Assembly: GCA_000002435.2 (NCBI GenBank)
Contig: CM018792.1
Strand: one strand, 5' to 3'
DNA: 64,000 bases
Origin: Giardia intestinalis
Lineage: Eukaryota
The notes beneath the pieces were generated by a model that ran no database searches, was not told the origin of the DNA, and worked only from the letters and a program-made list of their open reading frames with translations. Positions 3,332 through 20,953 of this stretch are shown one piece after another; position 1 is the stretch's first letter, and every line of letters starts with the position of its first letter. The translations under genes were made by a program, and so were the position numbers.

Positions 3332-4099
3332 TATATTTATTTTAAGAAGAGATTTACTCCGTGTTAACAGACGAGCTTGCCACCCGCTGCCCGAGCAGGC
3401 CCGCTGGGGCCTCTCCCCCGCCCTGCGCGGTTGACCCCGAGAGCCTGGAGGCCGCCCGATTCTGGGGAGGGGAGGGGTGTCGCGCCTCCTCGCTCTGAGC
3501 GTCGTGACCTTGCTCTTGCGACACCGTCTGGGCTTCTCCTTTCTCTCACTCAGCCCCCTTGGGGCCAACTTCTGTATGGAGTGGAAAGCAGTGATCTTGG
3601 CCACGTAGCCTAGGGCCTTGGTACTCTATGACGAAGATTGCATACGCCATGAACCTCGGGATGGCCCGAAGCTCACCGGATACTTTCTTGTCATCTCGTG
3701 GAGCGGGTGTCCGTCCCACTATCAAGGGTGTGCTCCCCGTATGCCTCTATCTTGGAGTTAGAGTACGCACTCATGGATGCCGGCGGACAGCTCCCATGCG
3801 TTGGTGCCGAGGAAGAGGTCCAGCCCTGGTTTGCCTTCCCGCTCGACCCGTCCTTCTGCTCATGGACCACAGCGCGCCTCTTGTGCAGTGCTAGGAGACG
3901 CATACCGACAGACATTGCGCCTTGCCACGTCACTGGCCGGATCTTCCTGCTCGCGGTTGGCATGCGGCTCCTCGTCTGTCTGAACAAGGCAGTGGGGGTT
4001 GGAGTGGCAGAACTAGAGCGTGTTTGCCAGAGGCGCTAGTCTGCCGGCTAGAGGCGGAGTCGAGCGATGCCTGCCCAGAGATGCTCGCTCGGCTGCGAG

Positions 4100-5720
4100 G
4101 AGCACTGCAGGGGGTTCCACGAGCGCGGGAAGGCTCCCTCCCCTAGAAGCCCCGAGGGCCCTCGCGTCCCCGAGTTCAGTCTCCAGGGGCTTTGCGGGCA
4201 TATGCGACGATCTGGGCGCAAGAGCCCTGGGTGGTCTCGAACTCCGGACGCACGCTTTCACCAGGGTTTCGCACCCGAGCGTCCTCAGATACCACCGGGT
4301 AATCAGAACGAGCTGCTTTGTCTACACAACCATGGACCGCGGCCACAGAAGTCTAGGACAACTCCTCCTTGAGCACATGCAGGCCGACGAGCCGGTCGCT
4401 GAGGGCCTGGTGTTGTCCATCATGGAGCAGCTTTCTACCGGGCTTACCTACCTCCATGACGTCTGCTGGGAGGACGCCAGCGGAGCGCCCTGCCAGGGAA
4501 TCGTCCACTAGAGCCTCACGCCCGCCGACGCCCTCATTAGACAGGACGAACAGCGCGTCGTGCTCGCAGACTTCGCGTCCACAGAAACGCTCTGCACAGT
4601 GGCAGTGCGGAGGCAGAGGGCCCCGCGTACACGGATCCTGAAGCCCTCAGATGGCGCGGCCTCCGATCTCTGGGCCCTTGGTGCTATCGCATGCGAGCCT
4701 GCCACTTTGAAGGGGCCGAGCTTCCTGGACGGGTAAGACGCAAAGGCCCCTTTGTCGCCGGATGGAAGCCGAATCTGGGCCTTGTTGTGAAGGATCTCGT
4801 GTGGGATGTCCTCGGGAGGGTCTTTGCCTCAGACCCCGAGTGGTGACCAACAGCCACCAAGCTCGCCAGCCTGCTTCTGCGTGCGGGACGTCTGCTGTGG
4901 GCCCGGATCTCCAGGCCGGCGAGTTGGCAAGCACGGGCGAGTCTCTGCGGCCAGTGCCGAGTCTGTCCTTTCGAGGCAGGGCCCGAAGATGCCGCTCAGC
5001 ATATCAGAGGCATTGGCGCATCCATCGGGCCGTTCCACCAAAGGGCGGGAGCAGCACACTGCAGACGGGCACGGGGCTTCCATCGAATCGACCGACCAGG
5101 TTGCAGCGAGCGGCACGAGGTCCCTATCCTTCCGGGTCCCTGCGAAGGACTCCTCGTGGACCCGGCTGATGCGCGCTGCCGTTACTGGAGATCTCAAGAC
5201 GGCACAGAAGCACCTTGGTGAAAAGGACAAGAAGAACGAGGCGGCGACGCGGTGTACACTCCTGCCGTCAAGGCCGGACAGGGGCCGATGCTGGAGCTCC
5301 TTGACCTTACGGATAAGGCCGGGTCACGGCGCTCATGAGGGCTGCGGACAGAGGAGACGCAGAGGCAGTGAGGCTTCTGGTGAAGCACGAGGACGGCATG
5401 AGGGATGACGATGATTGACGGCGCTCATGATAGCAGCACGGTATCGCCATCCGGAATGCGTTAAGCTTGCTAGAGAGGGAAGCATGTATGACAGGCATAA
5501 GAGGCGCGACTGCTCTTGTGCATGCGGCGGCCAACGGCAGTGCCTTGTGCATACCCTTCCTCTTGGAGAAGGAGGCATGTGTGCAGGACGCCAGTGGCTG
5601 GTCTGCTCTCGCGTGGGCAACATATCTAGATAAGCCAGAGTGTGCGAAGCTTCTTATGGGGGAGGAGGACATAGAAATCACCCCCATAGCTGGAGGGTAT
5701 GCCGACGATGGCAACAATGG
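4100..5720 (+). pseudogene. NEK-family protein kinase / ankyrin-repeat pseudogene (left-arm copy), GC-rich
   Basis: Kinase subdomains are readable: HPSVLRYH, LTYLHD..GIVH*SLTPADALIRQDEQRVVLADFAS (an in-frame TAG sits where HRD would be), and SDLWALGAIACE. Ankyrin repeats follow (TRLMRAAVTGDLKTAQKHL, TALMIAARYRHPECVKL, GATALVHAAANGSALCIPFLL, SGWSALAWATYLDKPECAKLL). They are spread over three frames with stops. The coordinates are approximate. Confidence 0.7.
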
Positions 5721-8287
5721 CAAGACCGGTGGCGACTATTGTCGACTATGACGACTATGATTACTCGACTCCTATGACCACGATTATCATGCTCCTGACG
5801 ATCATGACGTTTACGATTGCTACGGTTACTAGTATTCTGATAACTATGATTTTCATAATCCTTTTGAATGCGATTCCTTATGTGGCGCCACAGCTCTTGA
5901 GCTAGAGGATGGATCATCGAGGGATAGTGGAGGTTCTTTCAACGCGACTGCAGGGTACTAACGGGCTTCTCTACAGGCACACCTTTATACAACTGCCAAT
6001 CTGTTTGCAGCAGTAAAGCTGCGTCACCGCAGTGGCCTAGGGGCTGCTCGATCTATAATTCCGCAAGGGGCAGGCTGATAAAGCAAAACTCTGCGGCCTA
6101 ATTTGTGCCCTGTACAGCCAGCAAGCAAATCCTCTGGACCGCCAGCAGAGCTGCTCGTTCAGCGGAGCGCCGTCTCGTAGGGAGAAGCGGGACGTCACTG
6201 TCAGGCCCAAGCGAGAGTGCCGGCGCCATGCGAACAGTCTCCGGTCCCTGGAGGCCGCCCCGGGTCACCGAAGGCAGGGTATCCTATTGCACAGTGCAGG
6301 CGCGTAGCAGCTAACAGAACCGGCGCAAGTGGCGGCCGAGCGGTGGCTTTTGCGCCTCTCCGAAGTGGGGAGACAGTGTCCAGAAGGCGCGAGGTTCCCG
6401 CGATTTGTCTGGAGCCAGCCGGGAGCGTCACAGAAAAAGCATCTTGAGGGCTCCCTAGGTGCAGTGGCAAAGGGACGTCCGCTGCTTCTTCGCCAGCGGC
6501 TTGCCCGGTGGACCACAGGGCCTCCTAGGCCGCCAAGCGCGAACACAGCTGCGATGAGTGGCTACTGTACGCCCTTGTGACACAGAGTGGACGTGCAGGA
6601 TGCCAGCGACGTGCTGAGGAAGGCTTTATTACCCTCCTGCTGTCTGTGCACCTGCTCCTGGTAAGGATGCTGAGCCCATGCTTACAAGCCACGGCCCCTT
6701 TGAGAGTGGCCAAAGCCGGTGCTCGAGCAGAGATAGATGGCTGCCTCGCAGATCTCGAATCGCTGCGCATGCCGGTCCAGAGAGACACCGATCAGCCCGT
6801 CACTAGGGATGAGGATCCAGGCATGAGAATCGCCAGCCTCCCGCGCCTCGGATGGACCCAGGCGATGGTGGTACGGGGCTAAGGGTCCTGCTACATCCGG
6901 GCAGACCAGGCATTGCCTCTGAACATGACATCAGGTCAGGGCCCTGTCGCGGACAGAGGGGCGAGGCTAGAAGCCAGCCGAGGCGGAGCAGCTGCATAGA
7001 CGGGAGCGCAGGTTATTATGGCAGCAGACTTCCACAGACGAGGGAGCCCGCGCTCTACTCCAGGATGAAACAGCGACGCCCCAGAGTGCGGCCCCGAACC
7101 ATGCTGCACCCCTCCTTTTGTGGCGCGGGAAGACTGCATGCACTTCAACCACGATGCATCCGGCCTTGAACACTGTGCGGAAAGACAGGCGGCCAGTGCG
7201 ATTCATGCGACGCAAGGAAGATGCCTCACCTTCTGATGCCCTACAATGCGGGGAACATAGCCCCCTGCGCACGGGCTGTCTGCTTAAGGACGGCAAGCAC
7301 ATGGAACCAGGCATGAACGGAACCGGGTCTTGATAGCGGCACGGCTGTCTTCAAGGGAAGGGTGATCTCTTGTCTCTTTAAGCAAGACGTGCTGGATCGC
7401 ACAAGCTTACGATTGGGTGAGGAAGGCTTCTGCATGCAACTCTCTGGCATGACCTAGCTGCAAACAGGCGGCAGCGAAGAGCGGACAGCGGGCTCCAGTC
7501 GTGCGGAAGGAGGATGCACCTGCCTGAGGCTACACGCAGTCATCAGGCGGGGCGTTCTCTGCAGAGGTTACGTGCTATGCAGGGTCGTGTCAAACCGAAG
7601 GACCACTCTTAGATGAGCCAGACCAAGGTGCCCCCATCCGCGCGAGACAGGCCTGTCAGATATATGGCATGCCTGCGAAAGTGAGCGCCGACAGGCAGGG
7701 GCCCGGGTAGACCTGGCGTCCTGGCCCAGAGAGTGAACGAGGACGGCCCGCGATACTTGTCCAGCCGAAGTATGAACGCTATGATGCCCCGGGTTGGACA
7801 AGCAACTCTTAGCGCCCCCCCTGAGAGGCTGCAGAGGACGGGCTTCTGGATGGAGGGACGACCCCAGCCAGGCAGACGTGATCACAGAAGAAGGGGCGCT
7901 GGAACCCGGAACAGTGGCTGACGACTGCGTGTCTGCGCGATGCAGTGCCCACTACTGTCAGTCGGCACACGGCGGTCGGCAGGACGCAGAGCTGCAGAGT
8001 GCTGGAGGCGCCGAGCGAGGCCAGTCTCGCTCATGGGACAGAGGCTGCCTGAGCCCCGCAGTCCTGCGAGCCTCTGGACGGTGGCAACAAGAGACCTTTC
8101 ATGGTACGCATCTGCCTGGATGGCGGCGTGATCCCAGAGCCGGCATCGTACCACTTCACGAGCATCACGATCGCTGTGTCCCCCACGATGGTCACTCGGG
8201 CAGTAGTCAGGTGCAGGGCATGGCGGCTCTTCCCTGTCCCCCAGCAGGACCTCGTAAGAGTAGAGTAGATTGTATAACGATGGACGC

Positions 8288-8302
8288 GTTTACTATCTAA
8301 GT
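8288..8302 (-). terminator. VSP-type extended polyadenylation signal (ACTTAGATAGTAAAC)
   Basis: The motif starts at the A of the TGA stop. It matches the conserved ACTYAGRTAGTRAAY element found 3' of Giardia VSP genes (established knowledge). Confidence 0.75.
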
Positions 8303-10524
8303 CACGCCTTGCCCCTACATATGAACCACCAGCAGAGGAAGCCCACGAGGCCCCCAACGACGACGATGACTGCGACGGAGATGCCCGCGATGGCCCCCGT
8401 GGAGAGCCCGCTCTTATTCGTGCTTCCGCCAGTATTGTCGCCGGTATTATCATCCGTTTCGAAACATATGAACTTGCCGTTAACAGGTGTCGCGCACTGC
8501 CTGCATCCAGCCAGCCCCTCGGAGCACTTTCTGCACGGCCCATTACTACTACTCTCCTTGTAATATCCAGGAGTACATACCTTGCATGTAGTAGCATCGG
8601 CTTCGCAGGTGTAGCAACTTTCGTGGCATTTCGTGCAGGCACTGCCGACCTTCACATATCCGTCCATGCACCTAGAACAGTCCCTAGTGGTGGTGCACTC
8701 AGCGCACCCAGTGTAGCAAGCCACAAGGCTCTCGCCTGTCAGGCTAAATCCTTCTTCCGGAGTCTTGCAGGTTCCGCCTGTACTCTGCGCACTCAAGCAC
8801 ACTGTCGACCCCGGAAGCTGGCTGGTGGAGTAGCAGCCGCCGTTCATCTTGAAGAAGCCGTCTGCGCAGACATTGCACACGCCACCAGTAATGCTTCCAT
8901 CTTTGCACTTATCTGTGCGACTGGTTTTAACAGCACAGACGCCGTTCTGGGGATACTCGTTGTTTTGACTACAGACAGAGCAGTATTTTGTCCCCTCAAC
9001 AGTCAGACCGCACTCCCTGCACTTGCCTGTGCCTGTGCCCGCCGCGCACTCGGCCCCACATGTGCCAGTGTTTCCTGTGGATCCGTAGGTGAGCGCGCTT
9101 CCAGACTTACAGCTTGTGCAATCATTGGCAGTATTTCCGCTACATGTCTTACAGCTGGAATCGCAAGGGGAGCACGCTTCGCCGTAGAAGCCGTCCTTAC
9201 AGAGACCGCACCCGCCATTTTCACTGCACGCGAGACAGTTGGCGACCTCGCACTTCTTGCAGACCCTCTTGTTGCCCTCTGTGCTACTGTAGTAGCCTAG
9301 AATATATTCGCAGTGGTCTATGCACTGGTTTGTTGGCGTCAGATACTTGTTGGACAGACATTCGGTGCAGATCTCTTTGTTTGTTTGTGCACCACTGCAT
9401 GCCTTACAATCCTGAGTACTGCATGGATTTGAAGGGGAATCATTTGGCACGCATTGTGTTTCTTCTTCGTCAAGTTTAAATCCATCATTGCACGTGCAAG
9501 TATTCTCGGTCTTGGCTTCTGAGTTATCAGGGCAGCTACTAATGCACGACTTCTTTCCGAGTCCAAATACCATATTTTCCTTACACGCTGTGCAGGTAAC
9601 GGAGGTGTCACTTTTGGTGCATGTTTTGCAGTTCTCAAACGTTCCTGCCGTGCACGGCTTGCACGTCTTCGGCTCCTCATCGTCGGCGTAGTGGGTGTTT
9701 CCACTCGTGCACGCTTCCTCAGTCACGCACTCGCCTGCCTGATCCTGTGACTGCGCCTTCTTTAGGTACGGCTTGTCCTCATTGCAAGAGGTGCACTTCG
9801 TAGCCTCGGTCTCACAGGTCTTGCATGTCTCAGCGCACTTGGTGCATTTTTTACTGCCTGTTGCATCGACGAAGAAGCCTGCAGTACTCGTGCACTCATG
9901 TTCCGTCACACACGACGTCACGTCGCCGTCCGTCTTAACAATCCTCGCGGTTTGCTGCGCATCAGGGCCGCACGCAGTACACTTAGCAACTCCACTGGCC
10001 TCTACCGTTAATTGTAATCCGTCACAGGCAGTGCACCCATCCACGCCCGTGTACTTCTTATTGCCAGTAAGCGTCACGCCTATCGAATCTCCGCACGAAA
10101 CAACCGAGTCGTGCGCATTATCAGCGCCCGGCGGTAGAAAGTATCCTTCCGTAGCCTGTGTGCACTTACCACCAGCTGCTCCTCCACACATCACATTGCC
10201 AGGCTCAATAGCTTGTTCGTAACACCCGCCCTTGTACATAAAAGTCTGACCAGCGCACTTTGCACAGGTCTCATCAGATGCAGTATTTCCATCGGCAGCT
10301 GTACATTTATCTGTTACATCATCTTTGCCTACACATTTTCCATTGATAGGAACAAATCCTGTGTTACATTGAGAGCAATACAATTTACCACCGATCAGAA
10401 CGTTGCATGCGTTTGCTGCACAATTGGCGTTATTCGCGCAGTGAGCTTCCCGCGCACGTTCTGCTACTTTTTCTGCCCATGCAATCTGGATGGCTAGGCC
10501 CGCGAATATAAAACTGCCGAACAT
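8302..10524 (-). CDS. vsp: Variant-specific surface protein (VSP), 740 aa, copy 1
   Basis: Signal peptide MFGSFIFAGLAIQIAWA. Cysteine-rich with many CxxC motifs and two GGCY motifs. TM helix plus the invariant C-terminus CRGKA. Identical in protein to the ORF at 13767..15989. Confidence 0.95.
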   Translation of the reverse strand: MFGSFIFAGLAIQIAWAEKVAERAREAHCANNANCAANACNVLIGGKLYCSQCNTGFVPINGKCVGKDDVTDKCTAADGNTASDETCAKCAGQTFMYKGGCYEQAIEPGNVMCGGAAGGKCTQATEGYFLPPGADNAHDSVVSCGDSIGVTLTGNKKYTGVDGCTACDGLQLTVEASGVAKCTACGPDAQQTARIVKTDGDVTSCVTEHECTSTAGFFVDATGSKKCTKCAETCKTCETEATKCTSCNEDKPYLKKAQSQDQAGECVTEEACTSGNTHYADDEEPKTCKPCTAGTFENCKTCTKSDTSVTCTACKENMVFGLGKKSCISSCPDNSEAKTENTCTCNDGFKLDEEETQCVPNDSPSNPCSTQDCKACSGAQTNKEICTECLSNKYLTPTNQCIDHCEYILGYYSSTEGNKRVCKKCEVANCLACSENGGCGLCKDGFYGEACSPCDSSCKTCSGNTANDCTSCKSGSALTYGSTGNTGTCGAECAAGTGTGKCRECGLTVEGTKYCSVCSQNNEYPQNGVCAVKTSRTDKCKDGSITGGVCNVCADGFFKMNGGCYSTSQLPGSTVCLSAQSTGGTCKTPEEGFSLTGESLVACYTGCAECTTTRDCSRCMDGYVKVGSACTKCHESCYTCEADATTCKVCTPGYYKESSSNGPCRKCSEGLAGCRQCATPVNGKFICFETDDNTGDNTGGSTNKSGLSTGAIAGISVAVIVVVGGLVGFLCWWFICRGKA

Positions 10525-10590
10525 TAACCAATCTGGTAGATTGATAGGAACAGAATCGCGATATATTCAGCCAATCCGTGTGACTGACAC

Positions 10591-10607
10591 ATGATGATGA
10601 TGATGAT
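10591..10607. repeat. (CAT/ATG)5 trinucleotide microsatellite about 70 nt upstream of the VSP copy 1 ATG
   Basis: atgatgatgatgatgat, read directly. Mirror of 13684-13700. Confidence 0.9.
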
Positions 10608-11449
10608 TTACTCCACCCACCGGTTGCTTCCAGTGGTGTGCTGCTGGGGCCCTCGCCTGCAGGCGCTGTCCGCAAATCTCGCGAGTAAATTCCCGCTCAA
10701 TTTTTGGCGATGTCCGGAGATGAGGGTTGGTCACGGGCCGTAACGATAATCACAGCGGTTGTAAGGAGGAGCTATCTGCATTCCTCGGCTGTTCCGTGGG
10801 CATGCGCACACAACCGGACCTGAAACGAAGGAGAGCCCGCAAGGACCCGATCCACATCATGAACGCAAGATCGTACCTTCGGGCCCCCAGAGAGCAAGCC
10901 GTGAGTCTCTACTTGGGAGACCACTCCAAAGACGCTTGCCCTCTCGGCAGGACACACACGCTGGCTCTGTGGCCTACCGTGCAAGAGTGCCAACAATCAA
11001 CCGAGCACCTGAGAGAAGCAAATGATAACAGACACAGAGTACTAGGTGACGACAAACTGATCATTCCATCCCATATACCGAACCAGACAGCTGCCATGCT
11101 CATCCACCAGGGTGCAGCATGATCGCGAGCATCGAGCAGGCCGGGACTGGGGTAGCGCTCCCCGCTATCAGGGGCCTGAACGCCTTGGTAGGAAACTGCT
11201 AGAAGACTCAAGCAACACAGCAGAGCAGACCCAGAGCAAGGCGGACCCAGACCCCGAGAAGGCGAGACGCCGGATAGCAAACAGGGTGAACAACGCGCTG
11301 AGTTTCGGGGCAGTTGCCAAGGCCCTCCGCGCCCTTGATGACACGCCCACGATAGACAAGCCGGAGAAGGCCGACCGCCCTCAGCGCGCTACACCTGTGC
11401 GTCCCCCCGAAGGCTACGTTGGCCTTGACTACCCTCCATCGATGAGCTC

Positions 11450-13360
11450 GACGGGCTGGAGTGGCAACCGAAGAAGAAATGAGGAAGGCTCTGTTTGAGA
11501 CTCTCAACAAGAAGGCCTCGGGCCGGTCCAGCTCAAGGCGATGAAGCAGAGCGACAGCTTCGTGAAGTACCTCACGCAGGCATACAACGAGCTGACCACC
11601 CACCCCGAGGCGATGCCAGAGGTGATGGCCATGCTCGAGTTCCGGGCGATCCTCATCCCGAAGGAGTCCGACGGATACCGCCCGATCGCGATAGGCGAGA
11701 CGGTGACAAACATCTTCCACCGCGTCCTGCTGAAGGGCTGATCAGGCATGCCAACTACCTCTTGTGCGAACAGATCGCCTTCATGCAGAACGCATACGCG
11801 GTAGGCGTGAGGAGGGCCCACGAGCTCATCAGCAGGACAGGAGCACGCCGTCTCCCTCGACACAAAGAACGCCCTCAACTCGCTCCCGAGGGCGGAGGTC
11901 GTCAGAGCCCTGAACGAGGCGGGCGTCCCGAAGGTCCTGGTCGACTACATCGGGGACTTCCTCGACCTGAGGCACAGCCGGGACGTGAAGTGCGAGGTCT
12001 GCGGCGTCCCCCAGGGCGACCCGCTCAGCATGCTCCTCTTCTGCATGGCCACCGAGCGCCTCCTGAGACGCCTCAGGGAGAGGGGCATCACCTTCCTTGC
12101 CTATGCGGACGACATCGTGGCGTTCCACGACGAGGCCTACCCAGCAGGCGTGATAACACAGCTGGCCATGGGCCTGACGATCAGGAGCGACAATGCAAGT
12201 CCACCATGGCGGGCGAGGAGGTGACCTTCCCCAACCACCCGGTGTCCCCCACTCCTGCCAGTCTCGCGCCGAAGGCCATCGCAGGTGCCGAGACTGCCCT
12301 GAGGAAGATTGAGAACGCCCCCATAACCACCCACCAGAAGCTCATCCTGATGTCACTCTGCGTGGTCCCGATGGTGAACTACGCCCCCCTGGTCGAGATA
12401 ACATCGGATAAGGCGGACTACAAGGAGCTGACAGATATCGCACAAGGCTTCAGCAAGCTAACCAGCAGAAGCTGCGATCGCCTGGTCGACTTCCTGGCGT
12501 ACCAAAGGAGAAGGGCGGCCCGGGCCTGCTCATGCCGGGGTTCTACCACGACGAGCTGCGGAGAGCATGGGCCTCCCTGGACGTCAACAAGGGGACCAGA
12601 GACCCGGTGGAGCTGCCGGTGGAAGGCCAGGCACTGCAAGGGAAGGGGACCTACTCCAACCGCCTCCTCACGCATACACCAGCTTCCGGACAGAGCGGCG
12701 GCGTGCTGACCGAGGAGGAAAGGGCCCTGAAGCAGAGAGATGGCTCGATCATGGGGCAGACAAGAGGCACCTGCCCGGGCTGCCACACGGCAAGGACCCT
12801 CGACCGCGACATGATCGTCACGTGCCTGTACCTCCGCGTCTCAGGGAAGTTCAACGCAGAGCTGGAGGTCAAGACCCACAGCCACCTCAGCGGCCAGAAC
12901 CAGAAGCCCGACATCTGGTTCGTCGACAAGTGCAAGGCGATAGATGTGGGTGTCATCCAGCCCCGCCAGATGGACGCCTACTACAACGAGAAGGTCAAGA
13001 AGTACAGGGACGGGACGCTCCCGATCATCTACGGGACAGACGGATCCCTCCACCCAAGTCCAAGGGGCACCTCGAGGAGCTCCACGTGGACCTCTGTCCG
13101 GGCTGCCTTCGCCATCGCCCACATGGCTGCAAAGGCGAACGAGCACCCGACGAAGCTGATCAGACGGGCCGGGCCGAAAGCCTGGCCACCCAGAGCGACC
13201 GTCTCCTGTCATCCTACTTCTGACAACCGAATGAGTCCATCCCCGGGACCTGTCGACAACGACCGAGAAGGGGCGCAAGACTGGACACACAACCGAGTTG
13301 AATCCCAACCAGAAGAGAAAGCCCCGCTAGCTGCTGCTGATATACATGGACAGTATTGAG
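11450..13360 (+). mobile_element. Degenerate non-LTR (LINE-like) retrotransposon remnant: RT domain with a frameshift and stop, and a REL-endonuclease domain in another frame
   Basis: Track frame 0 carries the RT motifs. RAILIPKESDGYRPIAIGETVTNIFHRVLL covers the IPK..RPI motif (track ORF 11541..11741, which ends in TGA). AVSLDTKNALNSLPR, GVPQGDPLSMLLF and FLAYADDIVAF follow (track ORF 11985..12224). KKASGP upstream lies in a different frame. Track ORF 12532..13359 is in another frame and carries CPGCHTARTLDRDMIVTC (CCHC) plus KPDIWFVDKCKAIDVGV (PD..D/ExK). That is the C-terminal REL-endo architecture of Genie/GilM/GilT/GilD-type Giardia elements (family assignment from established knowledge, no search). 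Local coordinates are approximate to within a few nt. Confidence 0.8.
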
Positions 13361-13683
13361 AATGACAACAAAGACCAGAGCTTCACTCACCGTGAAGGGA
13401 GAGCAAGGAGAGGCACCCTAGTAGACCAGCAAGCCTGCAGGACGGCTTGATCTCTGAAAGAACCGATGTGCACACCCAGTCTGAGCTCACGCCCACGGAA
13501 CAGCCGAGGAATGCAGATAGCTCCTCCCTTCCACTACTGTGGTCTTTGTATTGATACACGACCAACCCTCGTCTCCGGACTAGTCAGGGACTGAGCAAGA
13601 GCTTACCCGTGAGATCTCTGGACCATACCTGCAGGCGAGGGCCCCAGCAGCACACCACTGGAAGCAACCGGTGGGTGGAGTAA

Positions 13684-13700
13684 ATCATCATCATCATCAT
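13684..13700. repeat. (ATC)5 microsatellite upstream of the VSP copy 2 ATG, running into an ATG at 13699
   Basis: atcatcatcatcatcatg. The ATG at 13699 opens a 22-codon uORF. Its TAA stop (13765-13767) overlaps the VSP ATG (13767) as ggtTAATGttc. Confidence 0.9.
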
Positions 13701-13766
13701 GTGTCAGTCACACGGATTGGCTGAATATATCGCGATTCTGTTCCTATCAATCTACCAGATTGGTTA

Positions 13767-15989
13767 ATGTTCGGCAGTTTTATATTCGCGGGCCTAGCCA
13801 TCCAGATTGCATGGGCAGAAAAAGTAGCAGAACGTGCGCGGGAAGCTCACTGCGCGAATAACGCCAATTGTGCAGCAAACGCATGCAACGTTCTGATCGG
13901 TGGTAAATTGTATTGCTCTCAATGTAACACAGGATTTGTTCCTATCAATGGAAAATGTGTAGGCAAAGATGATGTAACAGATAAATGTACAGCTGCCGAT
14001 GGAAATACTGCATCTGATGAGACCTGTGCAAAGTGCGCTGGTCAGACTTTTATGTACAAGGGCGGGTGTTACGAACAAGCTATTGAGCCTGGCAATGTGA
14101 TGTGTGGAGGAGCAGCTGGTGGTAAGTGCACACAGGCTACGGAAGGATACTTTCTACCGCCGGGCGCTGATAATGCGCACGACTCGGTTGTTTCGTGCGG
14201 AGATTCGATAGGCGTGACGCTTACTGGCAATAAGAAGTACACGGGCGTGGATGGGTGCACTGCCTGTGACGGATTACAATTAACGGTAGAGGCCAGTGGA
14301 GTTGCTAAGTGTACTGCGTGCGGCCCTGATGCGCAGCAAACCGCGAGGATTGTTAAGACGGACGGCGACGTGACGTCGTGTGTGACGGAACATGAGTGCA
14401 CGAGTACTGCAGGCTTCTTCGTCGATGCAACAGGCAGTAAAAAATGCACCAAGTGCGCTGAGACATGCAAGACCTGTGAGACCGAGGCTACGAAGTGCAC
14501 CTCTTGCAATGAGGACAAGCCGTACCTAAAGAAGGCGCAGTCACAGGATCAGGCAGGCGAGTGCGTGACTGAGGAAGCGTGCACGAGTGGAAACACCCAC
14601 TACGCCGACGATGAGGAGCCGAAGACGTGCAAGCCGTGCACGGCAGGAACGTTTGAGAACTGCAAAACATGCACCAAAAGTGACACCTCCGTTACCTGCA
14701 CAGCGTGTAAGGAAAATATGGTATTTGGACTCGGAAAGAAGTCGTGCATTAGTAGCTGCCCTGATAACTCAGAAGCCAAGACCGAGAATACTTGCACGTG
14801 CAATGATGGATTTAAACTTGACGAAGAAGAAACACAATGCGTGCCAAATGATTCCCCTTCAAATCCATGCAGTACTCAGGATTGTAAGGCATGCAGTGGT
14901 GCACAAACAAACAAAGAGATCTGCACCGAATGTCTGTCCAACAAGTATCTGACGCCAACAAACCAGTGCATAGACCACTGCGAATATATTCTAGGCTACT
15001 ACAGTAGCACAGAGGGCAACAAGAGGGTCTGCAAGAAGTGCGAGGTCGCCAACTGTCTCGCGTGCAGTGAAAATGGCGGGTGCGGTCTCTGTAAGGACGG
15101 CTTCTACGGCGAAGCGTGCTCCCCTTGCGATTCCAGCTGTAAGACATGTAGCGGAAATACTGCCAATGATTGCACAAGCTGTAAGTCTGGAAGCGCGCTC
15201 ACCTACGGATCCACAGGAAACACTGGCACATGTGGGGCCGAGTGCGCGGCGGGCACAGGCACAGGCAAGTGCAGGGAGTGCGGTCTGACTGTTGAGGGGA
15301 CAAAATACTGCTCTGTCTGTAGTCAAAACAACGAGTATCCCCAGAACGGCGTCTGTGCTGTTAAAACCAGTCGCACAGATAAGTGCAAAGATGGAAGCAT
15401 TACTGGTGGCGTGTGCAATGTCTGCGCAGACGGCTTCTTCAAGATGAACGGCGGCTGCTACTCCACCAGCCAGCTTCCGGGGTCGACAGTGTGCTTGAGT
15501 GCGCAGAGTACAGGCGGAACCTGCAAGACTCCGGAAGAAGGATTTAGCCTGACAGGCGAGAGCCTTGTGGCTTGCTACACTGGGTGCGCTGAGTGCACCA
15601 CCACTAGGGACTGTTCTAGGTGCATGGACGGATATGTGAAGGTCGGCAGTGCCTGCACGAAATGCCACGAAAGTTGCTACACCTGCGAAGCCGATGCTAC
15701 TACATGCAAGGTATGTACTCCTGGATATTACAAGGAGAGTAGTAGTAATGGGCCGTGCAGAAAGTGCTCCGAGGGGCTGGCTGGATGCAGGCAGTGCGCG
15801 ACACCTGTTAACGGCAAGTTCATATGTTTCGAAACGGATGATAATACCGGCGACAATACTGGCGGAAGCACGAATAAGAGCGGGCTCTCCACGGGGGCCA
15901 TCGCGGGCATCTCCGTCGCAGTCATCGTCGTCGTTGGGGGCCTCGTGGGCTTCCTCTGCTGGTGGTTCATATGTAGGGGCAAGGCGTGA
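13767..15989 (+). CDS. vsp: Variant-specific surface protein (VSP), 740 aa, copy 2 (identical to copy 1)
   Basis: Same translation as 8302..10524. ATG at 13767. Ends ...WWFICRGKA. Confidence 0.95.
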   Translation: MFGSFIFAGLAIQIAWAEKVAERAREAHCANNANCAANACNVLIGGKLYCSQCNTGFVPINGKCVGKDDVTDKCTAADGNTASDETCAKCAGQTFMYKGGCYEQAIEPGNVMCGGAAGGKCTQATEGYFLPPGADNAHDSVVSCGDSIGVTLTGNKKYTGVDGCTACDGLQLTVEASGVAKCTACGPDAQQTARIVKTDGDVTSCVTEHECTSTAGFFVDATGSKKCTKCAETCKTCETEATKCTSCNEDKPYLKKAQSQDQAGECVTEEACTSGNTHYADDEEPKTCKPCTAGTFENCKTCTKSDTSVTCTACKENMVFGLGKKSCISSCPDNSEAKTENTCTCNDGFKLDEEETQCVPNDSPSNPCSTQDCKACSGAQTNKEICTECLSNKYLTPTNQCIDHCEYILGYYSSTEGNKRVCKKCEVANCLACSENGGCGLCKDGFYGEACSPCDSSCKTCSGNTANDCTSCKSGSALTYGSTGNTGTCGAECAAGTGTGKCRECGLTVEGTKYCSVCSQNNEYPQNGVCAVKTSRTDKCKDGSITGGVCNVCADGFFKMNGGCYSTSQLPGSTVCLSAQSTGGTCKTPEEGFSLTGESLVACYTGCAECTTTRDCSRCMDGYVKVGSACTKCHESCYTCEADATTCKVCTPGYYKESSSNGPCRKCSEGLAGCRQCATPVNGKFICFETDDNTGDNTGGSTNKSGLSTGAIAGISVAVIVVVGGLVGFLCWWFICRGKA

Positions 15990-16003
15990 CTTAGATAGTA
16001 AAC
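15989..16003 (+). terminator. VSP-type extended polyadenylation signal (ACTTAGATAGTAAAC)
   Basis: tgACTTAGATAGTAAACgcg, read directly after the copy-2 stop codon. Confidence 0.75.
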
Positions 16004-18570
16004 GCGTCCATCGTTATACAATCTACTCTACTCTTACGAGGTCCTGCTGGGGGACAGGGAAGAGCCGCCATGCCCTGCACCTGACTACTGCCCGAGTGAC
16101 CATCGTGGGGGACACAGCGATCGTGATGCTCGTGAAGTGGTACGATGCCGGCTCTGGGATCACGCCGCCATCCAGGCAGATGCGTACCATGAAAGGTCTC
16201 TTGTTGCCACCGTCCAGAGGCTCGCAGGACTGCGGGGCTCAGGCAGCCTCTGTCCCATGAGCGAGACTGGCCTCGCTCGGCGCCTCCAGCACTCTGCAGC
16301 TCTGCGTCCTGCCGACCGCCGTGTGCCGACTGACAGTAGTGGGCACTGCATCGCGCAGACACGCAGTCGTCAGCCACTGTTCCGGGTTCCAGCGCCCCTT
16401 CTTCTGTGATCACGTCTGCCTGGCTGGGGTCGTCCCTCCATCCAGAAGCCCGTCCTCTGCAGCCTCTCAGGGGGGGCGCTAAGAGTTGCTTGTCCAACCC
16501 GGGGCATCATAGCGTTCATACTTCGGCTGGACAAGTATCGCGGGCCGTCCTCGTTCACTCTCTGGGCCAGGACGCCAGGTCTACCCGGGCCCCTGCCTGT
16601 CGGCGCTCACTTTCGCAGGCATGCCATATATCTGACAGGCCTGTCTCGCGCGGATGGGGGCACCTTGGTCTGGCTCATCTAAGAGTGGTCCTTCGGTTTG
16701 ACACGACCCTGCATAGCACGTAACCTCTGCAGAGAACGCCCCGCCTGATGACTGCGTGTAGCCTCAGGCAGGTGCATCCTCCTTCCGCACGACTGGAGCC
16801 CGCTGTCCGCTCTTCGCTGCCGCCTGTTTGCAGCTAGGTCATGCCAGAGAGTTGCATGCAGAAGCCTTCCTCACCCAATCGTAAGCTTGTGCGATCCAGC
16901 ACGTCTTGCTTAAAGAGACAAGAGATCACCCTTCCCTTGAAGACAGCCGTGCCGCTATCAAGACCCGGTTCCGTTCATGCCTGGTTCCATGTGCTTGCCG
17001 TCCTTAAGCAGACAGCCCGTGCGCAGGGGGCTATGTTCCCCGCATTGTAGGGCATCAGAAGGTGAGGCATCTTCCTTGCGTCGCATGAATCGCACTGGCC
17101 GCCTGTCTTTCCGCACAGTGTTCAAGGCCGGATGCATCGTGGTTGAAGTGCATGCAGTCTTCCCGCGCCACAAAAGGAGGGGTGCAGCATGGTTCGGGGC
17201 CGCACTCTGGGGCGTCGCTGTTTCATCCTGGAGTAGAGCGCGGGCTCCCTCGTCTGTGGAAGTCTGCTGCCATAATAACCTGCGCTCCCGTCTATGCAGC
17301 TGCTCCGCCTCGGCTGGCTTCTAGCCTCGCCCCTCTGTCCGCGACAGGGCCCTGACCTGATGTCATGTTCAGAGGCAATGCCTGGTCTGCCCGGATGTAG
17401 CAGGACCCTTAGCCCCGTACCACCATCGCCTGGGTCCATCCGAGGCGCGGGAGGCTGGCGATTCTCATGCCTGGATCCTCATCCCTAGTGACGGGCTGAT
17501 CGGTGTCTCTCTGGACCGGCATGCGCAGCGATTCGAGATCTGCGAGGCAGCCATCTATCTCTGCTCGAGCACCGGCTTTGGCCACTCTCAAAGGGGCCGT
17601 GGCTTGTAAGCATGGGCTCAGCATCCTTACCAGGAGCAGGTGCACAGACAGCAGGAGGGTAATAAAGCCTTCCTCAGCACGTCGCTGGCATCCTGCACGT
17701 CCACTCTGTGTCACAAGGGCGTACAGTAGCCACTCATCGCAGCTGTGTTCGCGCTTGGCGGCCTAGGAGGCCCTGTGGTCCACCGGGCAAGCCGCTGGCG
17801 AAGAAGCAGCGGACGTCCCTTTGCCACTGCACCTAGGGAGCCCTCAAGATGCTTTTTCTGTGACGCTCCCGGCTGGCTCCAGACAAATCGCGGGAACCTC
17901 GCGCCTTCTGGACACTGTCTCCCCACTTCGGAGAGGCGCAAAAGCCACCGCTCGGCCGCCACTTGCGCCGGTTCTGTTAGCTGCTACGCGCCTGCACTGT
18001 GCAATAGGATACCCTGCCTTCGGTGACCCGGGGCGGCCTCCAGGGACCGGAGACTGTTCGCATGGCGCCGGCACTCTCGCTTGGGCCTGACAGTGACGTC
18101 CCGCTTCTCCCTACGAGACGGCGCTCCGCTGAACGAGCAGCTCTGCTGGCGGTCCAGAGGATTTGCTTGCTGGCTGTACAGGGCACAAATTAGGCCGCAG
18201 AGTTTTGCTTTATCAGCCTGCCCCTTGCGGAATTATAGATCGAGCAGCCCCTAGGCCACTGCGGTGACGCAGCTTTACTGCTGCAAACAGATTGGCAGTT
18301 GTATAAAGGTGTGCCTGTAGAGAAGCCCGTTAGTACCCTGCAGTCGCGTTGAAAGAACCTCCACTATCCCTCGATGATCCATCCTCTAGCTCAAGAGCTG
18401 TGGCGCCACATAAGGAATCGCATTCAAAAGGATTATGAAAATCATAGTTATCAGAATACTAGTAACCGTAGCAATCGTAAACGTCATGATCGTCAGGAGC
18501 ATGATAATCGTGGTCATAGGAGTCGAGTAATCATAGTCGTCATAGTCGACAATAGTCGCCACCGGTCTTG

Positions 18571-20191
18571 CCATTGTTGCCATCGTCGGCATACCCTCCA
18601 GCTATGGGGGTGATTTCTATGTCCTCCTCCCCCATAAGAAGCTTCGCACACTCTGGCTTATCTAGATATGTTGCCCACGCGAGAGCAGACCAGCCACTGG
18701 CGTCCTGCACACATGCCTCCTTCTCCAAGAGGAAGGGTATGCACAAGGCACTGCCGTTGGCCGCCGCATGCACAAGAGCAGTCGCGCCTCTTATGCCTGT
18801 CATACATGCTTCCCTCTCTAGCAAGCTTAACGCATTCCGGATGGCGATACCGTGCTGCTATCATGAGCGCCGTCAATCATCGTCATCCCTCATGCCGTCC
18901 TCGTGCTTCACCAGAAGCCTCACTGCCTCTGCGTCTCCTCTGTCCGCAGCCCTCATGAGCGCCGTGACCCGGCCTTATCCGTAAGGTCAAGGAGCTCCAG
19001 CATCGGCCCCTGTCCGGCCTTGACGGCAGGAGTGTACACCGCGTCGCCGCCTCGTTCTTCTTGTCCTTTTCACCAAGGTGCTTCTGTGCCGTCTTGAGAT
19101 CTCCAGTAACGGCAGCGCGCATCAGCCGGGTCCACGAGGAGTCCTTCGCAGGGACCCGGAAGGATAGGGACCTCGTGCCGCTCGCTGCAACCTGGTCGGT
19201 CGATTCGATGGAAGCCCCGTGCCCGTCTGCAGTGTGCTGCTCCCGCCCTTTGGTGGAACGGCCCGATGGATGCGCCAATGCCTCTGATATGCTGAGCGGC
19301 ATCTTCGGGCCCTGCCTCGAAAGGACAGACTCGGCACTGGCCGCAGAGACTCGCCCGTGCTTGCCAACTCGCCGGCCTGGAGATCCGGGCCCACAGCAGA
19401 CGTCCCGCACGCAGAAGCAGGCTGGCGAGCTTGGTGGCTGTTGGTCACCACTCGGGGTCTGAGGCAAAGACCCTCCCGAGGACATCCCACACGAGATCCT
19501 TCACAACAAGGCCCAGATTCGGCTTCCATCCGGCGACAAAGGGGCCTTTGCGTCTTACCCGTCCAGGAAGCTCGGCCCCTTCAAAGTGGCAGGCTCGCAT
19601 GCGATAGCACCAAGGGCCCAGAGATCGGAGGCCGCGCCATCTGAGGGCTTCAGGATCCGTGTACGCGGGGCCCTCTGCCTCCGCACTGCCACTGTGCAGA
19701 GCGTTTCTGTGGACGCGAAGTCTGCGAGCACGACGCGCTGTTCGTCCTGTCTAATGAGGGCGTCGGCGGGCGTGAGGCTCTAGTGGACGATTCCCTGGCA
19801 GGGCGCTCCGCTGGCGTCCTCCCAGCAGACGTCATGGAGGTAGGTAAGCCCGGTAGAAAGCTGCTCCATGATGGACAACACCAGGCCCTCAGCGACCGGC
19901 TCGTCGGCCTGCATGTGCTCAAGGAGGAGTTGTCCTAGACTTCTGTGGCCGCGGTCCATGGTTGTGTAGACAAAGCAGCTCGTTCTGATTACCCGGTGGT
20001 ATCTGAGGACGCTCGGGTGCGAAACCCTGGTGAAAGCGTGCGTCCGGAGTTCGAGACCACCCAGGGCTCTTGCGCCCAGATCGTCGCATATGCCCGCAAA
20101 GCCCCTGGAGACTGAACTCGGGGACGCGAGGGCCCTCGGGGCTTCTAGGGGAGGGAGCCTTCCCGCGCTCGTGGAACCCCCTGCAGTGCTC
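18571..20191 (-). pseudogene. NEK-family kinase / ankyrin-repeat pseudogene (right-arm copy)
   Basis: Exact mirror image of 4100-5720. The mirrored ORFs (18658..18876, 18540..18824, 19780..20271) have identical translations. Confidence 0.7.
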
Positions 20192-20953
20192 CTCGCAGCC
20201 GAGCGAGCATCTCTGGGCAGGCATCGCTCGACTCCGCCTCTAGCCGGCAGACTAGCGCCTCTGGCAAACACGCTCTAGTTCTGCCACTCCAACCCCCACT
20301 GCCTTGTTCAGACAGACGAGGAGCCGCATGCCAACCGCGAGCAGGAAGATCCGGCCAGTGACGTGGCAAGGCGCAATGTCTGTCGGTATGCGTCTCCTAG
20401 CACTGCACAAGAGGCGCGCTGTGGTCCATGAGCAGAAGGACGGGTCGAGCGGGAAGGCAAACCAGGGCTGGACCTCTTCCTCGGCACCAACGCATGGGAG
20501 CTGTCCGCCGGCATCCATGAGTGCGTACTCTAACTCCAAGATAGAGGCATACGGGGAGCACACCCTTGATAGTGGGACGGACACCCGCTCCACGAGATGA
20601 CAAGAAAGTATCCGGTGAGCTTCGGGCCATCCCGAGGTTCATGGCGTATGCAATCTTCGTCATAGAGTACCAAGGCCCTAGGCTACGTGGCCAAGATCAC
20701 TGCTTTCCACTCCATACAGAAGTTGGCCCCAAGGGGGCTGAGTGAGAGAAAGGAGAAGCCCAGACGGTGTCGCAAGAGCAAGGTCACGACGCTCAGAGCG
20801 AGGAGGCGCGACACCCCTCCCCTCCCCAGAATCGGGCGGCCTCCAGGCTCTCGGGGTCAACCGCGCAGGGCGGGGGAGAGGCCCCAGCGGGCCTGCTCGG
20901 GCAGCGGGTGGCAAGCAAATTCTACAAAGATTTACTTCTAAGAACGTAAAGGA

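Follow-up and report, generated by a model that had tools for sequence, protein, structure and literature searches.

A dead GilD/Genie 2-type retrotransposon and its inverted ends at the centre of a VSP palindrome in Giardia intestinalis

Antigenic variation in Giardia, a major human parasite, depends on VSP genes, and identical inverted pairs of them have been called 'an interesting, but cryptic observation' (PMC2996952). What keeps two such copies identical, and does the DNA between them have a part in it? The question is raised by one pair on chromosome 4 of Giardia intestinalis WB, which we analysed within a 64,000-nucleotide stretch (the window) of the long-read WB reference, where the chromosome is a 2.76-Mb record. 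The two genes, GL50803_0050229 and GL50803_00d50229 (KAE8304422.1/KAE8304423.1, XP_037902095.1/XP_037902096.1), stand head-to-head with 3,242 nt between their ORFs. The same gap is given in a preprint, which lists the pair with 'two retrotransposon relics' (Rodriguez-Walker et al. 2022, bioRxiv 10.1101/2022.03.07.483299, S4/S1 tables). As in the pairs of WB defined by Adam et al. 2010, the ORFs are identical and inverted, lie 2-4 kb apart and have flanks that diverge abruptly, here 139 nt above the VSP start codon. That account called the intervening DNA non-coding and proposed that identical vsp pairs are recent duplications (PMC2996952). The window pair departs from it in that the divergence point lies inside a retroelement's own inverted repeat and in that the arm sequence of other isolates indicates concerted evolution. 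The element family, its death, its adjacency to VSP genes and even the locus are already on record; the merging of the element's own inverted ends into the palindrome arms may be new.

The palindrome and its island

The coordinates of the locus are collected in Table 1. Comparison of the two arms gave 0/7,289 mismatches, and both of their inner boundaries give the same symmetry centre, 12145.5. The spacer between them, 10664-13627, is exactly 2,964 bp, just as an earlier sequence-only reading of the window had placed it. Arm identity extends 4.9 kb past the VSP stop and reaches both edges of the intergenic island, which is about 17.5 kb long and lies between a Nop14-like gene and an insulinase-family gene.

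Table 1. Features of the palindrome, its central unit and the island termini (window positions)
Feature	Position	Strand	Remarks
Outermost terminus, Nop14 side, TTTACTCCGTGTTAACAGACGA	3353-3374	+	just beyond the perfect arm
Left palindrome arm	3375-10663		7,289 bp; 0 mismatches to the reverse complement of 13628-20916
5'-truncated relic of a second non-LTR lineage (closest to P0005)	3609-3882	-	3' end outward, toward Nop14
Decayed NEK-type kinase and ankyrin pseudogene	4020-5751, mirrored in right arm	+	Pfam Pkinase E=8e-4 (below curated cut-off), Ank_2 E=1.6e-10
VSP gene, left copy	8302-10524	-	740 aa, CRGKA tail; ATG 83 bp from unit end
Whole repeated unit, dead GilD/Genie 2-type non-LTR retrotransposon including terminal inverted repeats	10607-13684	+	3,078 bp
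Left terminal inverted repeat	10607-10810	+	outer 57 nt (10607-10663) within perfect arm; inner ~147 nt diverged
Degenerate single reading frame	11112-13359	+	in three frames, at least 6 frame changes plus internal stops; from three-frame translation and ORF list
Reverse transcriptase domain (IPK..RPI, LDTKNAL, GVPQGDPLS, YADD)	11660-12240	+	Pfam RVT_1
Zinc knuckle and restriction-like endonuclease (RxD, KPD, D.GV, EK..KY)	12772-13060	+	aligned to R2 residues ~888-1042
Right terminal inverted repeat	13476-13684	+	outer 57 nt (13628-13684) within perfect arm; ends ...GGTGGGTGGAGTAAA
Right palindrome arm	13628-20916		7,289 bp; perfectly complementary to left arm
VSP gene, right copy	13767-15989	+	translation identical to left copy
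Mirror copy of second-lineage relic	20409-20682	+	3' end outward, toward insulinase-family gene

The earlier reading had seen nothing else transposon-like in the window, which overlooked a relic of a second lineage near the outer end of each arm. The left copy was matched by tblastn with residues 367-467 of P0005 (E=1e-10, including FMAYAIFVIEYQ), and the relic is 72% nucleotide-identical to the metagenome contig L010. Beyond it, the Nop14-side terminus opens with TTTACTCC, as does the central unit, and is conserved in the isolates DH and P15 (TTTA-CTCT...). On the insulinase side TTTGC is followed directly by TTGCCACCC, a 19-nt indel relative to the Nop14 side. The outer limit of arm identity adjoins this indel, a few bases from the TTTAC/TTTGC terminus, which is homologous to the terminus of the central unit. 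These outer inverted termini of the island predate the assemblage A/E split.

The central unit and its inverted ends

A single uninterrupted 79-aa piece of the spacer matches Pfam RVT_1 (E=3e-10). The scan of unstitched ORFs gave no Pfam match besides this piece, so stitching across frames was needed; the resulting 584-aa product covers positions 1-198 of the 205 in the RVT_1 profile (E=2e-20). The reverse transcriptase motifs that had been noticed on the plus strand are present, and they are not chance similarity in GC-rich DNA. Among solved structures, the best relatives of the family profile are the R2 proteins 9nl2 (E=2e-33) and 8gh6 (E=7e-29), and the C-terminal stretch CPGC...(RH)D...KPD...D.GV...EK..KY aligns with the zinc knuckle and endonuclease of solved R2 (8gh6 stretch, i-Evalue 2e-5). 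The order of reverse transcriptase, linker, CCHC knuckle and PD-(D/E)xK-type nuclease is shared with R2 (8gh6, 9nl2), as are the conserved RHD/N, KPD, D and K. However, the Giardia unit is only about 20-25% identical to R2, does not lie in rDNA and, unlike R2, has terminal inverted repeats. We recognised in it no N-terminal DNA-binding region, zinc-finger or Myb, and an Rfam scan of the whole palindrome gave no match, for instance to an HDV-like 5' ribozyme as in R2. The nearest proteins are three hypothetical reverse transcriptases of Giardia DH (58-66% identity). Reverse transcriptase and endonuclease are the sole coding capacity of the unit.

GilD was reportedly described by Arkhipova and Morrison in 2001 and is said to be the element that Burke et al. 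called Genie 2 in 2002. The unit resembles it in having a single ORF for reverse transcriptase, zinc knuckle and restriction-like endonuclease, in surviving as decayed copies only, with frameshifts and microhomology-flanked deletions, and in adjoining VSP genes and carrying inverted repeats at its ends. Burke et al. reportedly found Genie 2 copies with inverted repeats of up to 172 bp; the ends here are about 205 nt, and nothing that contradicts membership was found. The literature searched, which does not include the defining 2001/2002 papers, quotes no Genie 2 inverted repeats, but it does give microhomology-flanked deletions as a hallmark of GilD and places GilD beside VSPs (PMC2861651). 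WB has three retrotransposon families only, of which two are telomeric (PMC3091692). The unit is chromosome-internal, between two VSP genes and not in a telomeric head-to-tail array, and blastn detected no tandem copy of it within the window. By its properties and by published statements, rather than by alignment to a reference sequence, we assign the spacer to the chromosome-internal non-LTR family GilD/Genie 2, as a dead copy; the central unit has no activity of its own. The sequence-only reading, which had called it a dead non-LTR retrotransposon of Gil/Genie architecture, was right in this.

Decay has gone further than the one frameshift and one stop initially counted. The reading frame changes at least six times, and about 25 indels separate the WB unit from four other copies. 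The copies are 90-94% identical to one another (6-10% diverged) and none is intact; a consensus from five of them is still without an open frame. A 45-nt deletion at ~12804, flanked by two CACGACATGA repeats, has cost the CCHC knuckle its H...C half, which other copies have, and left CPGC. Of the reported CCHC and KPD endonuclease domain, the endonuclease stands and half of the knuckle does not. Each of the WB-specific deletions (16, 22 and 45 nt) is flanked by a direct repeat, GGCCTC, GCG and CACGACATGA respectively.

The limits of the unit were mapped by alignment to other copies. The blastn matches to four copies in isolate DH start and stop at 10607 and 13684, beyond the spacer by 57 bp on each side, so that the remnant first placed at about 11450-13360 is indeed there but belongs to a larger repeated unit. 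At both ends the unit terminates sharply at TTTACTCCACCC..., with identical termini in WB and in the copies L002 and L003, while the flanks vary among loci. The element had been described as not itself palindromic; in fact its ends are terminal inverted repeats (204/209 nt in the window). Perfect identity of the arms halts 57 nt into these repeats, and over the remaining ~147 nt the left repeat is 74% identical to the right one, with a conserved core GGAGGAGCTATCTGCATTCCTCGGCTGTTCCGTGGGC. The inner part of the right repeat is closer to its counterpart in the DH copy of this locus (L008) than to the left repeat.

It had been proposed that other copies be inspected for inverted VSP/NEK flanks. 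L002 has none: it lies between non-VSP genes, without a larger palindrome, and has 170-nt inverted ends at 98% identity. The inverted repeats therefore belong to the unit. Their inner limit is common to all copies, so the repeat was inherited and not remade at each insertion. The outer 57 nt on each side are part of the perfect arms, and hence the last homogenisation would postdate the presence of the element. No poly(A) tail was found at any copy and no convincing target-site duplication either, in agreement with the failure to see them by eye; the flanks of L002, L003 and the window have no more than CG in common. Folding of the left inverted repeat is no stronger than that of shuffled sequence (z=+0.8). 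The sharp inverted termini led us to consider a TIR DNA transposon, which was rejected, as the unit has neither transposase nor target-site duplication.

Arm sequence in other isolates

DH and P15 have arm sequence at this locus too, and in each of these isolates it lies on either side, adjoining the Nop14-like gene as well as the insulinase-family gene. The DH fragments on the Nop14 and insulinase sides are 100% identical (0/419 bp mismatches, 419 bp being all of the second arm that was compared), and at the same two junctions P15 carries an inverted repeat of 366 bp with 99.5% identity (2/366 mismatches, again the full extent of the comparison); these assemblies are short-read or 454, and identical arm fragments in them could partly be merged reads. 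The DH fragments share 12-14 differences and a 3-bp indel relative to both WB arms. Divergence between WB and DH is about 3.3% over the same 419 bp and 3-11% along the arm, and the P15 repeat is 71-76% identical to WB (about 24-29% divergence). The arms are thus near-identical within an isolate and diverged between isolates, which, from short second-arm stretches in short-read assemblies, indicates probable concerted evolution. Arm sequence that lies on both sides in DH and P15 and co-evolves in each isolate points to homogenisation at the DNA level, and not to recent retrotransposition, as the source of the perfect identity in WB.

In P15 the arms have diverged in their outermost ~210 bp, suggesting that conversion does not always reach the termini. 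An element copy is already present at the locus in DH. No GilD copy was seen in the readable 10 kb of the P15 island, where the second lineage is represented by several partial inverted copies. In a distant Giardia (L012) the region upstream of Nop14 is AT-rich and unrecognisable, neither an 'empty site' nor an island. The spacer appears in reversed orientation in DH; we set aside a flip-flop inversion as the reason, since the spacer cannot be phased in a 454 assembly when the arms are identical.

Probable homogenisation of the arms and its alternatives

We consider it probable (about 0.7) that the palindrome around this dead GilD/Genie 2 unit is kept perfect by arm-to-arm gene conversion or gap repair between nested retroelement-derived inverted repeats, a model that we infer from boundary positions at a single locus. 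The arms would be kept identical at the DNA level, by conversion or by double-strand gap repair, with two nested pairs of inverted repeats as the limits of the homology used for repair. On the inside these would be the terminal repeats of the GilD unit itself and on the outside the outward-facing 3' ends of the second, older relic lineage at 3353/20920. When one arm breaks, resection would proceed to the anchors and repair would follow from the other arm, copying everything between them: VSP, NEK pseudogene and outer relic. Repair bounded in this way would leave perfect identity that ends inside both anchor repeats, as is observed, and the retroelement core, having no pairing partner, would stay as the unique spacer. 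The sequence-only reading had offered a choice between an element that seeded the inverted duplication and one that inserted late. Neither option fits well with DH and P15, which have arms on both sides and an apparent concerted evolution; the most fitting role for the inverted ends of the element is that of an inner homology anchor in arm homogenisation.

A single recent inverted duplication, by fold-back or template switching at the inverted ends of the element and without ongoing gene conversion, would agree with the 2010 view of identical vsp pairs (PMC2996952), with the absence of any mismatch in 7,289 bp and with an inner breakpoint inside a short inverted repeat, where a repeat-mediated template switch is expected. 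We nevertheless regard it as unlikely. The two sides are near-identical within DH and within P15 and 3-29% away from WB, which one event in WB cannot explain, and it is less parsimonious to suppose that three lineages each formed the structure anew at the same two junctions. Slightly less likely is a later insertion of the element into the centre of a pre-existing palindrome, as a fragile or preferred target. Elements with a restriction-like endonuclease are often site-specific, the outer termini of the island are older than the A/E split, and the lack of a GilD copy in the 10 kb of P15 island that was read would allow a short-armed palindromic island to predate GilD. On the other hand, the unit carries its own inverted ends also in the non-palindromic context of L002, has no flanking target-site duplication and was already at the locus in DH, and the position of its outer 57 nt within the perfect arms puts the last homogenisation after its arrival.

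It is more doubtful still that the integration chemistry of the element made the inverted duplication, by twin priming or by template switching during target-primed reverse transcription of read-through RNA, with the arms themselves reverse-transcribed. Such chemistry may well explain the first origin of the short 205-nt inverted ends. In its favour, the 3.1-kb unit and the 17.5-kb island are both bounded by 3'-terminal sequences of related elements that face outward (TTTACTCC.../...GGAGTAAA), the GilD ORF and the VSP and outer relic of the right arm are all sense on the plus strand, and the P15 island contains its several partial inverted copies. But an element that is long dead, with about 25 indels and copies 6-10% diverged, none of them intact, is flanked by arms that are 100% identical, and co-variation of the arms within DH and P15 at one locus calls for repeated homogenisation of DNA and not for one event. 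The inherited inner limit of the repeat and the missing poly(A) tail and target-site duplication also speak against it. An assembly artefact is very improbable, even though inverted repeats that are identical make assembly difficult, earlier assemblies of Giardia were interrupted at such pairs and duplicated VSPs were at one time suspected of being artefacts. The source here is the long-read WB reference, later analyses confirmed the pair as duplicated, and independent DH and P15 contigs have arm sequence beside both flanking genes; moreover, the vsp1267 inverted pair was known from cloned DNA before any genome assembly.

The anatomy that could matter is that the limits of identity lie inside old retroelement inverted repeats and that the arms co-evolve in each isolate. 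It is possible, at somewhat short of even odds, that retroelement-derived inverted repeats organise the antigen-gene palindromes of Giardia more widely, as anchors for the conversion or gap repair that creates and re-creates them. On this reading the 17.5-kb island as a whole would be an ancient structure with inverted repeats at its limits, in place at a single locus from before the A/E split, and its arms would evolve in concert. An RNA-interference pathway has been linked to VSP silencing, and such palindromes might feed long hairpin transcripts to it. The same arrangement would explain other head-to-head VSP/CRMP pairs with retrotransposon relics between them, for which the preprint's S4 table is the basis in WB. 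Were it to hold for those pairs, antigen genes would be duplicated and homogenised on a structural scaffolding of dead transposons, in an organism that has little or no meiosis.

The ampliconic palindromes of the human Y chromosome offer a parallel. They too have kilobase-sized, gene-bearing arms around a unique spacer, a structure conserved across lineages and an arm-to-arm identity far above that between lineages. In contrast, the Giardia arms are 7 kb and not up to megabases, conversion is here inferred from the sequence, and the organism is asexual or tetraploid. The Giardia spacer also differs in being a dead retroelement, with inverted ends of its own that make up the innermost stretch of the arms.

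Palindrome geometry and locus

A single large inverted repeat was found within the window. Its two 7,289-bp arms show 0 mismatches in a base-by-base count, and the arm boundaries fix the spacer exactly, at the limits that an earlier sequence-only reading had given. The palindrome entirely fills the gap between two housekeeping genes, starting 43 bp from the ATG of Nop14 and ending 38 bp past the stop codon of an insulinase-family gene. The VSP, both flanking genes and the next gene are exact protein matches to the 2.76-Mb chromosome record of WB clone C6. The VSP pair is GL50803_0050229/GL50803_00d50229 on chromosome 4, and the 3,242 nt listed for the pair, alongside two retrotransposon relics, equals the distance between the two VSP ORFs in the window (supplementary tables, bioRxiv 10.1101/2022.03.07.483299). 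Towards the outer end of each arm lies a relic of a second non-LTR lineage, and the arm also carries a VSP and a kinase/ankyrin (NEK-type) pseudogene in a decayed state. NEK, ankyrin and VSP are likewise associated around duplicated pairs in Giardia muris (PMC7641422). An (ATG)5 microsatellite lies between the central unit and the VSP upstream region, directly adjoining both unit ends, where other element copies have CG before the terminus.

Features of the palindrome, in window positions
Feature	Position	Strand	Remarks
Left arm	3375-10663		matches reverse complement of right arm
Right arm	13628-20916
Spacer	10664-13627
Conserved unit (GilD/Genie 2-type)	10607-13684
Terminal inverted repeats of unit	10607-10810; 13476-13684
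(ATG)5 microsatellite	10591-10606; 13685-13700
VSP pair in palindrome			KAE8304422.1/KAE8304423.1; also XP_037902095.1/XP_037902096.1; exact protein match
Kinase + ankyrin-repeat (NEK-type) pseudogene, decayed	4020-5751	+	mirrored in right arm
Second-lineage non-LTR relic, 5'-truncated	3609-3882	-	3' end outward
Mirror copy of second-lineage relic	20409-20682	+	3' end outward

A dead GilD-type element with its own inverted ends

Three-frame translation of the spacer plus strand recovered the reverse transcriptase motifs noted in the sequence-only reading, together with a C-terminal CPGC...KPD...D.GV...EK..KY region. A lone uninterrupted 79-aa piece matches Pfam RVT_1 at E=3e-10, and the frame-stitched product matches nearly the whole profile (positions 1-198/205) at E=2e-20. 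When a profile built from the stitched product and its relatives was searched against solved structures, R2 retrotransposon proteins were the top matches (9nl2, E=2e-33; 8gh6, E=7e-29), the alignment spanning the reverse transcriptase, zinc-knuckle and restriction-like endonuclease region, including RH(D/N), KPD, D and EK..KY. These matches rule out chance similarity in GC-rich DNA, the refutation named in that reading. Its frameshift and in-frame TGA pointed rightly to decay, but the damage is far heavier: the frame changes no fewer than six times, comparison with other copies shows about 25 indels, and there is a 45-nt deletion. Of its CCHC knuckle and endonuclease, CPGC and the endonuclease region stand; the H...C half of the knuckle was lost through that deletion. 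The element is dead.

Its closest relatives are three proteins of isolate DH (assemblage A2), at 58-66% identity. We compared four further copies, on the DH contigs of these proteins (L001-L003) and on the DH contig of the same locus (L008); identity among copies is 90-94%. Using blastn against them, the conserved unit extends 57 bp past the spacer on each side. When the ends of the three copies with readable ends were aligned, all shared one sharp terminus, TTTACTCCACCCACCGG, on the left and on the right, beyond which the flanks were unrelated. The exact termini, left to be mapped by the sequence-only reading, are thereby placed, and the shared terminus therefore defines terminal inverted repeats of about 205 nt. 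In the window the match between these repeats is perfect over the outer 57 nt and falls to 74% over the inner ~147 nt, where a core is conserved. Burke et al. (2002) reportedly found inverted repeats, at most 172 bp long, on every Genie 2 copy. One possible source of the 205-nt ends is an ancestral, twin-priming-like event in the family. End alignment across copies found no poly(A) tail or target-site duplication at the unit ends. An Rfam scan of the palindrome gave no hit, and the left inverted repeat shows no unusual RNA fold.

Whether other copies also have inverted flanks depends on the locus. The L002 copy, whose neighbours are a NOT2/3/5-type and an EamA-like gene, has 170-nt inverted ends (98%) and no larger palindrome, while the L003 inverted repeat takes in the 3' end of a VSP and reaches the end of the contig. 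Thus the inverted ends belong to the unit itself, and some loci have a palindrome that continues beyond them.

Arm boundaries and comparison with DH and P15

The outer relic matches P0005, a protein of the second lineage, at E=1e-10, including FMAYAIFVIEYQ, and is 72% identical in nucleotides to a metagenome contig (L010). Between P0005, its closest relative, and the GilD-like element, protein identity is ~40%. In P15 (assemblage E), a far better preserved copy of the second lineage lies in the island upstream of Nop14 (L011 4818-6747, minus strand; 81-96% protein identity to P0005), with incomplete copies in inverted orientation on either side (3630-4485 and 8685-9350); this lineage may have been recently active in assemblage E. 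The terminal arm bases are similar to the GilD terminus. On the Nop14 side, homology continues 22 nt beyond the perfect arm, reaching TTTACTCC at 3353; the counterpart of this terminus at the insulinase end is TTTGC, adjoining a 19-nt indel. Perfect identity therefore ends inside the unit's own repeats at the inner boundary and a few bases from an older, related terminus at the outer one.

The DH contig with Nop14 holds arm sequence, the element and a VSP unlike that of WB; the DH insulinase contig covers 419 bp of arm before it ends. Over this stretch it is 100% identical to the DH Nop14-side arm, and the two DH pieces share their differences from the WB pair of arms, 12-14 sites and one 3-bp indel. 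In P15, the two sides have a common 366-bp inverted repeat (99.5%) that is only 71-76% identical to WB, and TTTAC-type termini are kept on both sides. Arms thus co-vary within isolates, and they appear to evolve in concert within each lineage, judging from second arms known as short stretches in short-read assemblies. Arm sequence on both sides in DH and P15 makes the inverted structure older than the assemblage A/E split. Homology of the P15 insulinase side (L007 13403-15010) to the Nop14 side is confined to ~576 bp, of which the outermost ~210 bp have diverged and the next 366 bp form the near-identical repeat; the sequence beyond is unrelated, so P15 arms are far shorter than those of WB.

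WB-DH divergence (window 3332-8442 against L008) climbs steadily from ~1% in Nop14 to 3-5% in the outer arm and 8-11% deeper, far exceeding that of the neighbouring housekeeping gene. Nucleotide identity between the DH VSP (747 aa, L008 2716-4959) and the WB VSP (8302-10524) is ~71-72% over alignable stretches, against ~91% for the arm around them. These identities suggest that the antigen gene was replaced, or diverged much faster than its flanks, with WB having the new version in both arms.

Origin of the arms and prior record

The sequence-only reading offered two roles for the element, seed of the duplication or later insertion into its centre, and both fit poorly. An RT-driven event is an unlikely source of the 7.3-kb arms, given that the element died long ago and that three lineages homogenised this structure independently. 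Late insertion into the palindrome centre does not fit well, since it leaves unaccounted for both the unit's own ends being part of the perfect arms and the inverted ends at sites without a palindrome. We favour arm-to-arm gene conversion or double-strand gap repair as the process that would maintain arm identity; it would be anchored by the inner and outer pairs of inverted repeats, one nested within the other, and the element core, unable to pair, would stay as spacer. GilD may have entered an island already having short outer inverted repeats.

Much of the original observation is on record. An earlier study described fourteen vsp pairs, identical and inverted, with 2-4 kb of 'non-coding DNA' between the members; it called them cryptic and made no mention of retroelements (Adam et al. 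2010, PMC2996952). Retrotransposon remnants often lie between head-to-head pairs (bioRxiv 10.1101/2022.03.07.483299). Three WB retrotransposon families are reported, two of them telomeric (PMC3091692); the third, GilD, lies beside VSP genes and carries disrupting deletions mediated by microhomology (PMC2861651). Three larger WB-specific deletions in the window copy (16, 22 and 45 nt), each bounded by short direct repeats, share this hallmark. The outer relic belongs to a second non-LTR lineage; WB is usually credited with only three retrotransposon families. The observation is correct, then, and concerns a known element at a documented locus, its core already known. Boundaries inside repeats, the outer second-lineage relic and concerted evolution across assemblages may be new, judging by the accessible literature; together they define a testable model for other VSP palindromes.

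Between the element right end and the VSP upstream region, DH has ~290-370 bp (L008 2272-2648) that is absent from WB. The DH element is also oriented opposite to WB relative to the Nop14-side arm (L008 1-2271 against window 11470-13634), which could reflect a spacer flip by arm crossover or, equally, an orientation that the 454 assembler picked arbitrarily because the arms are identical.
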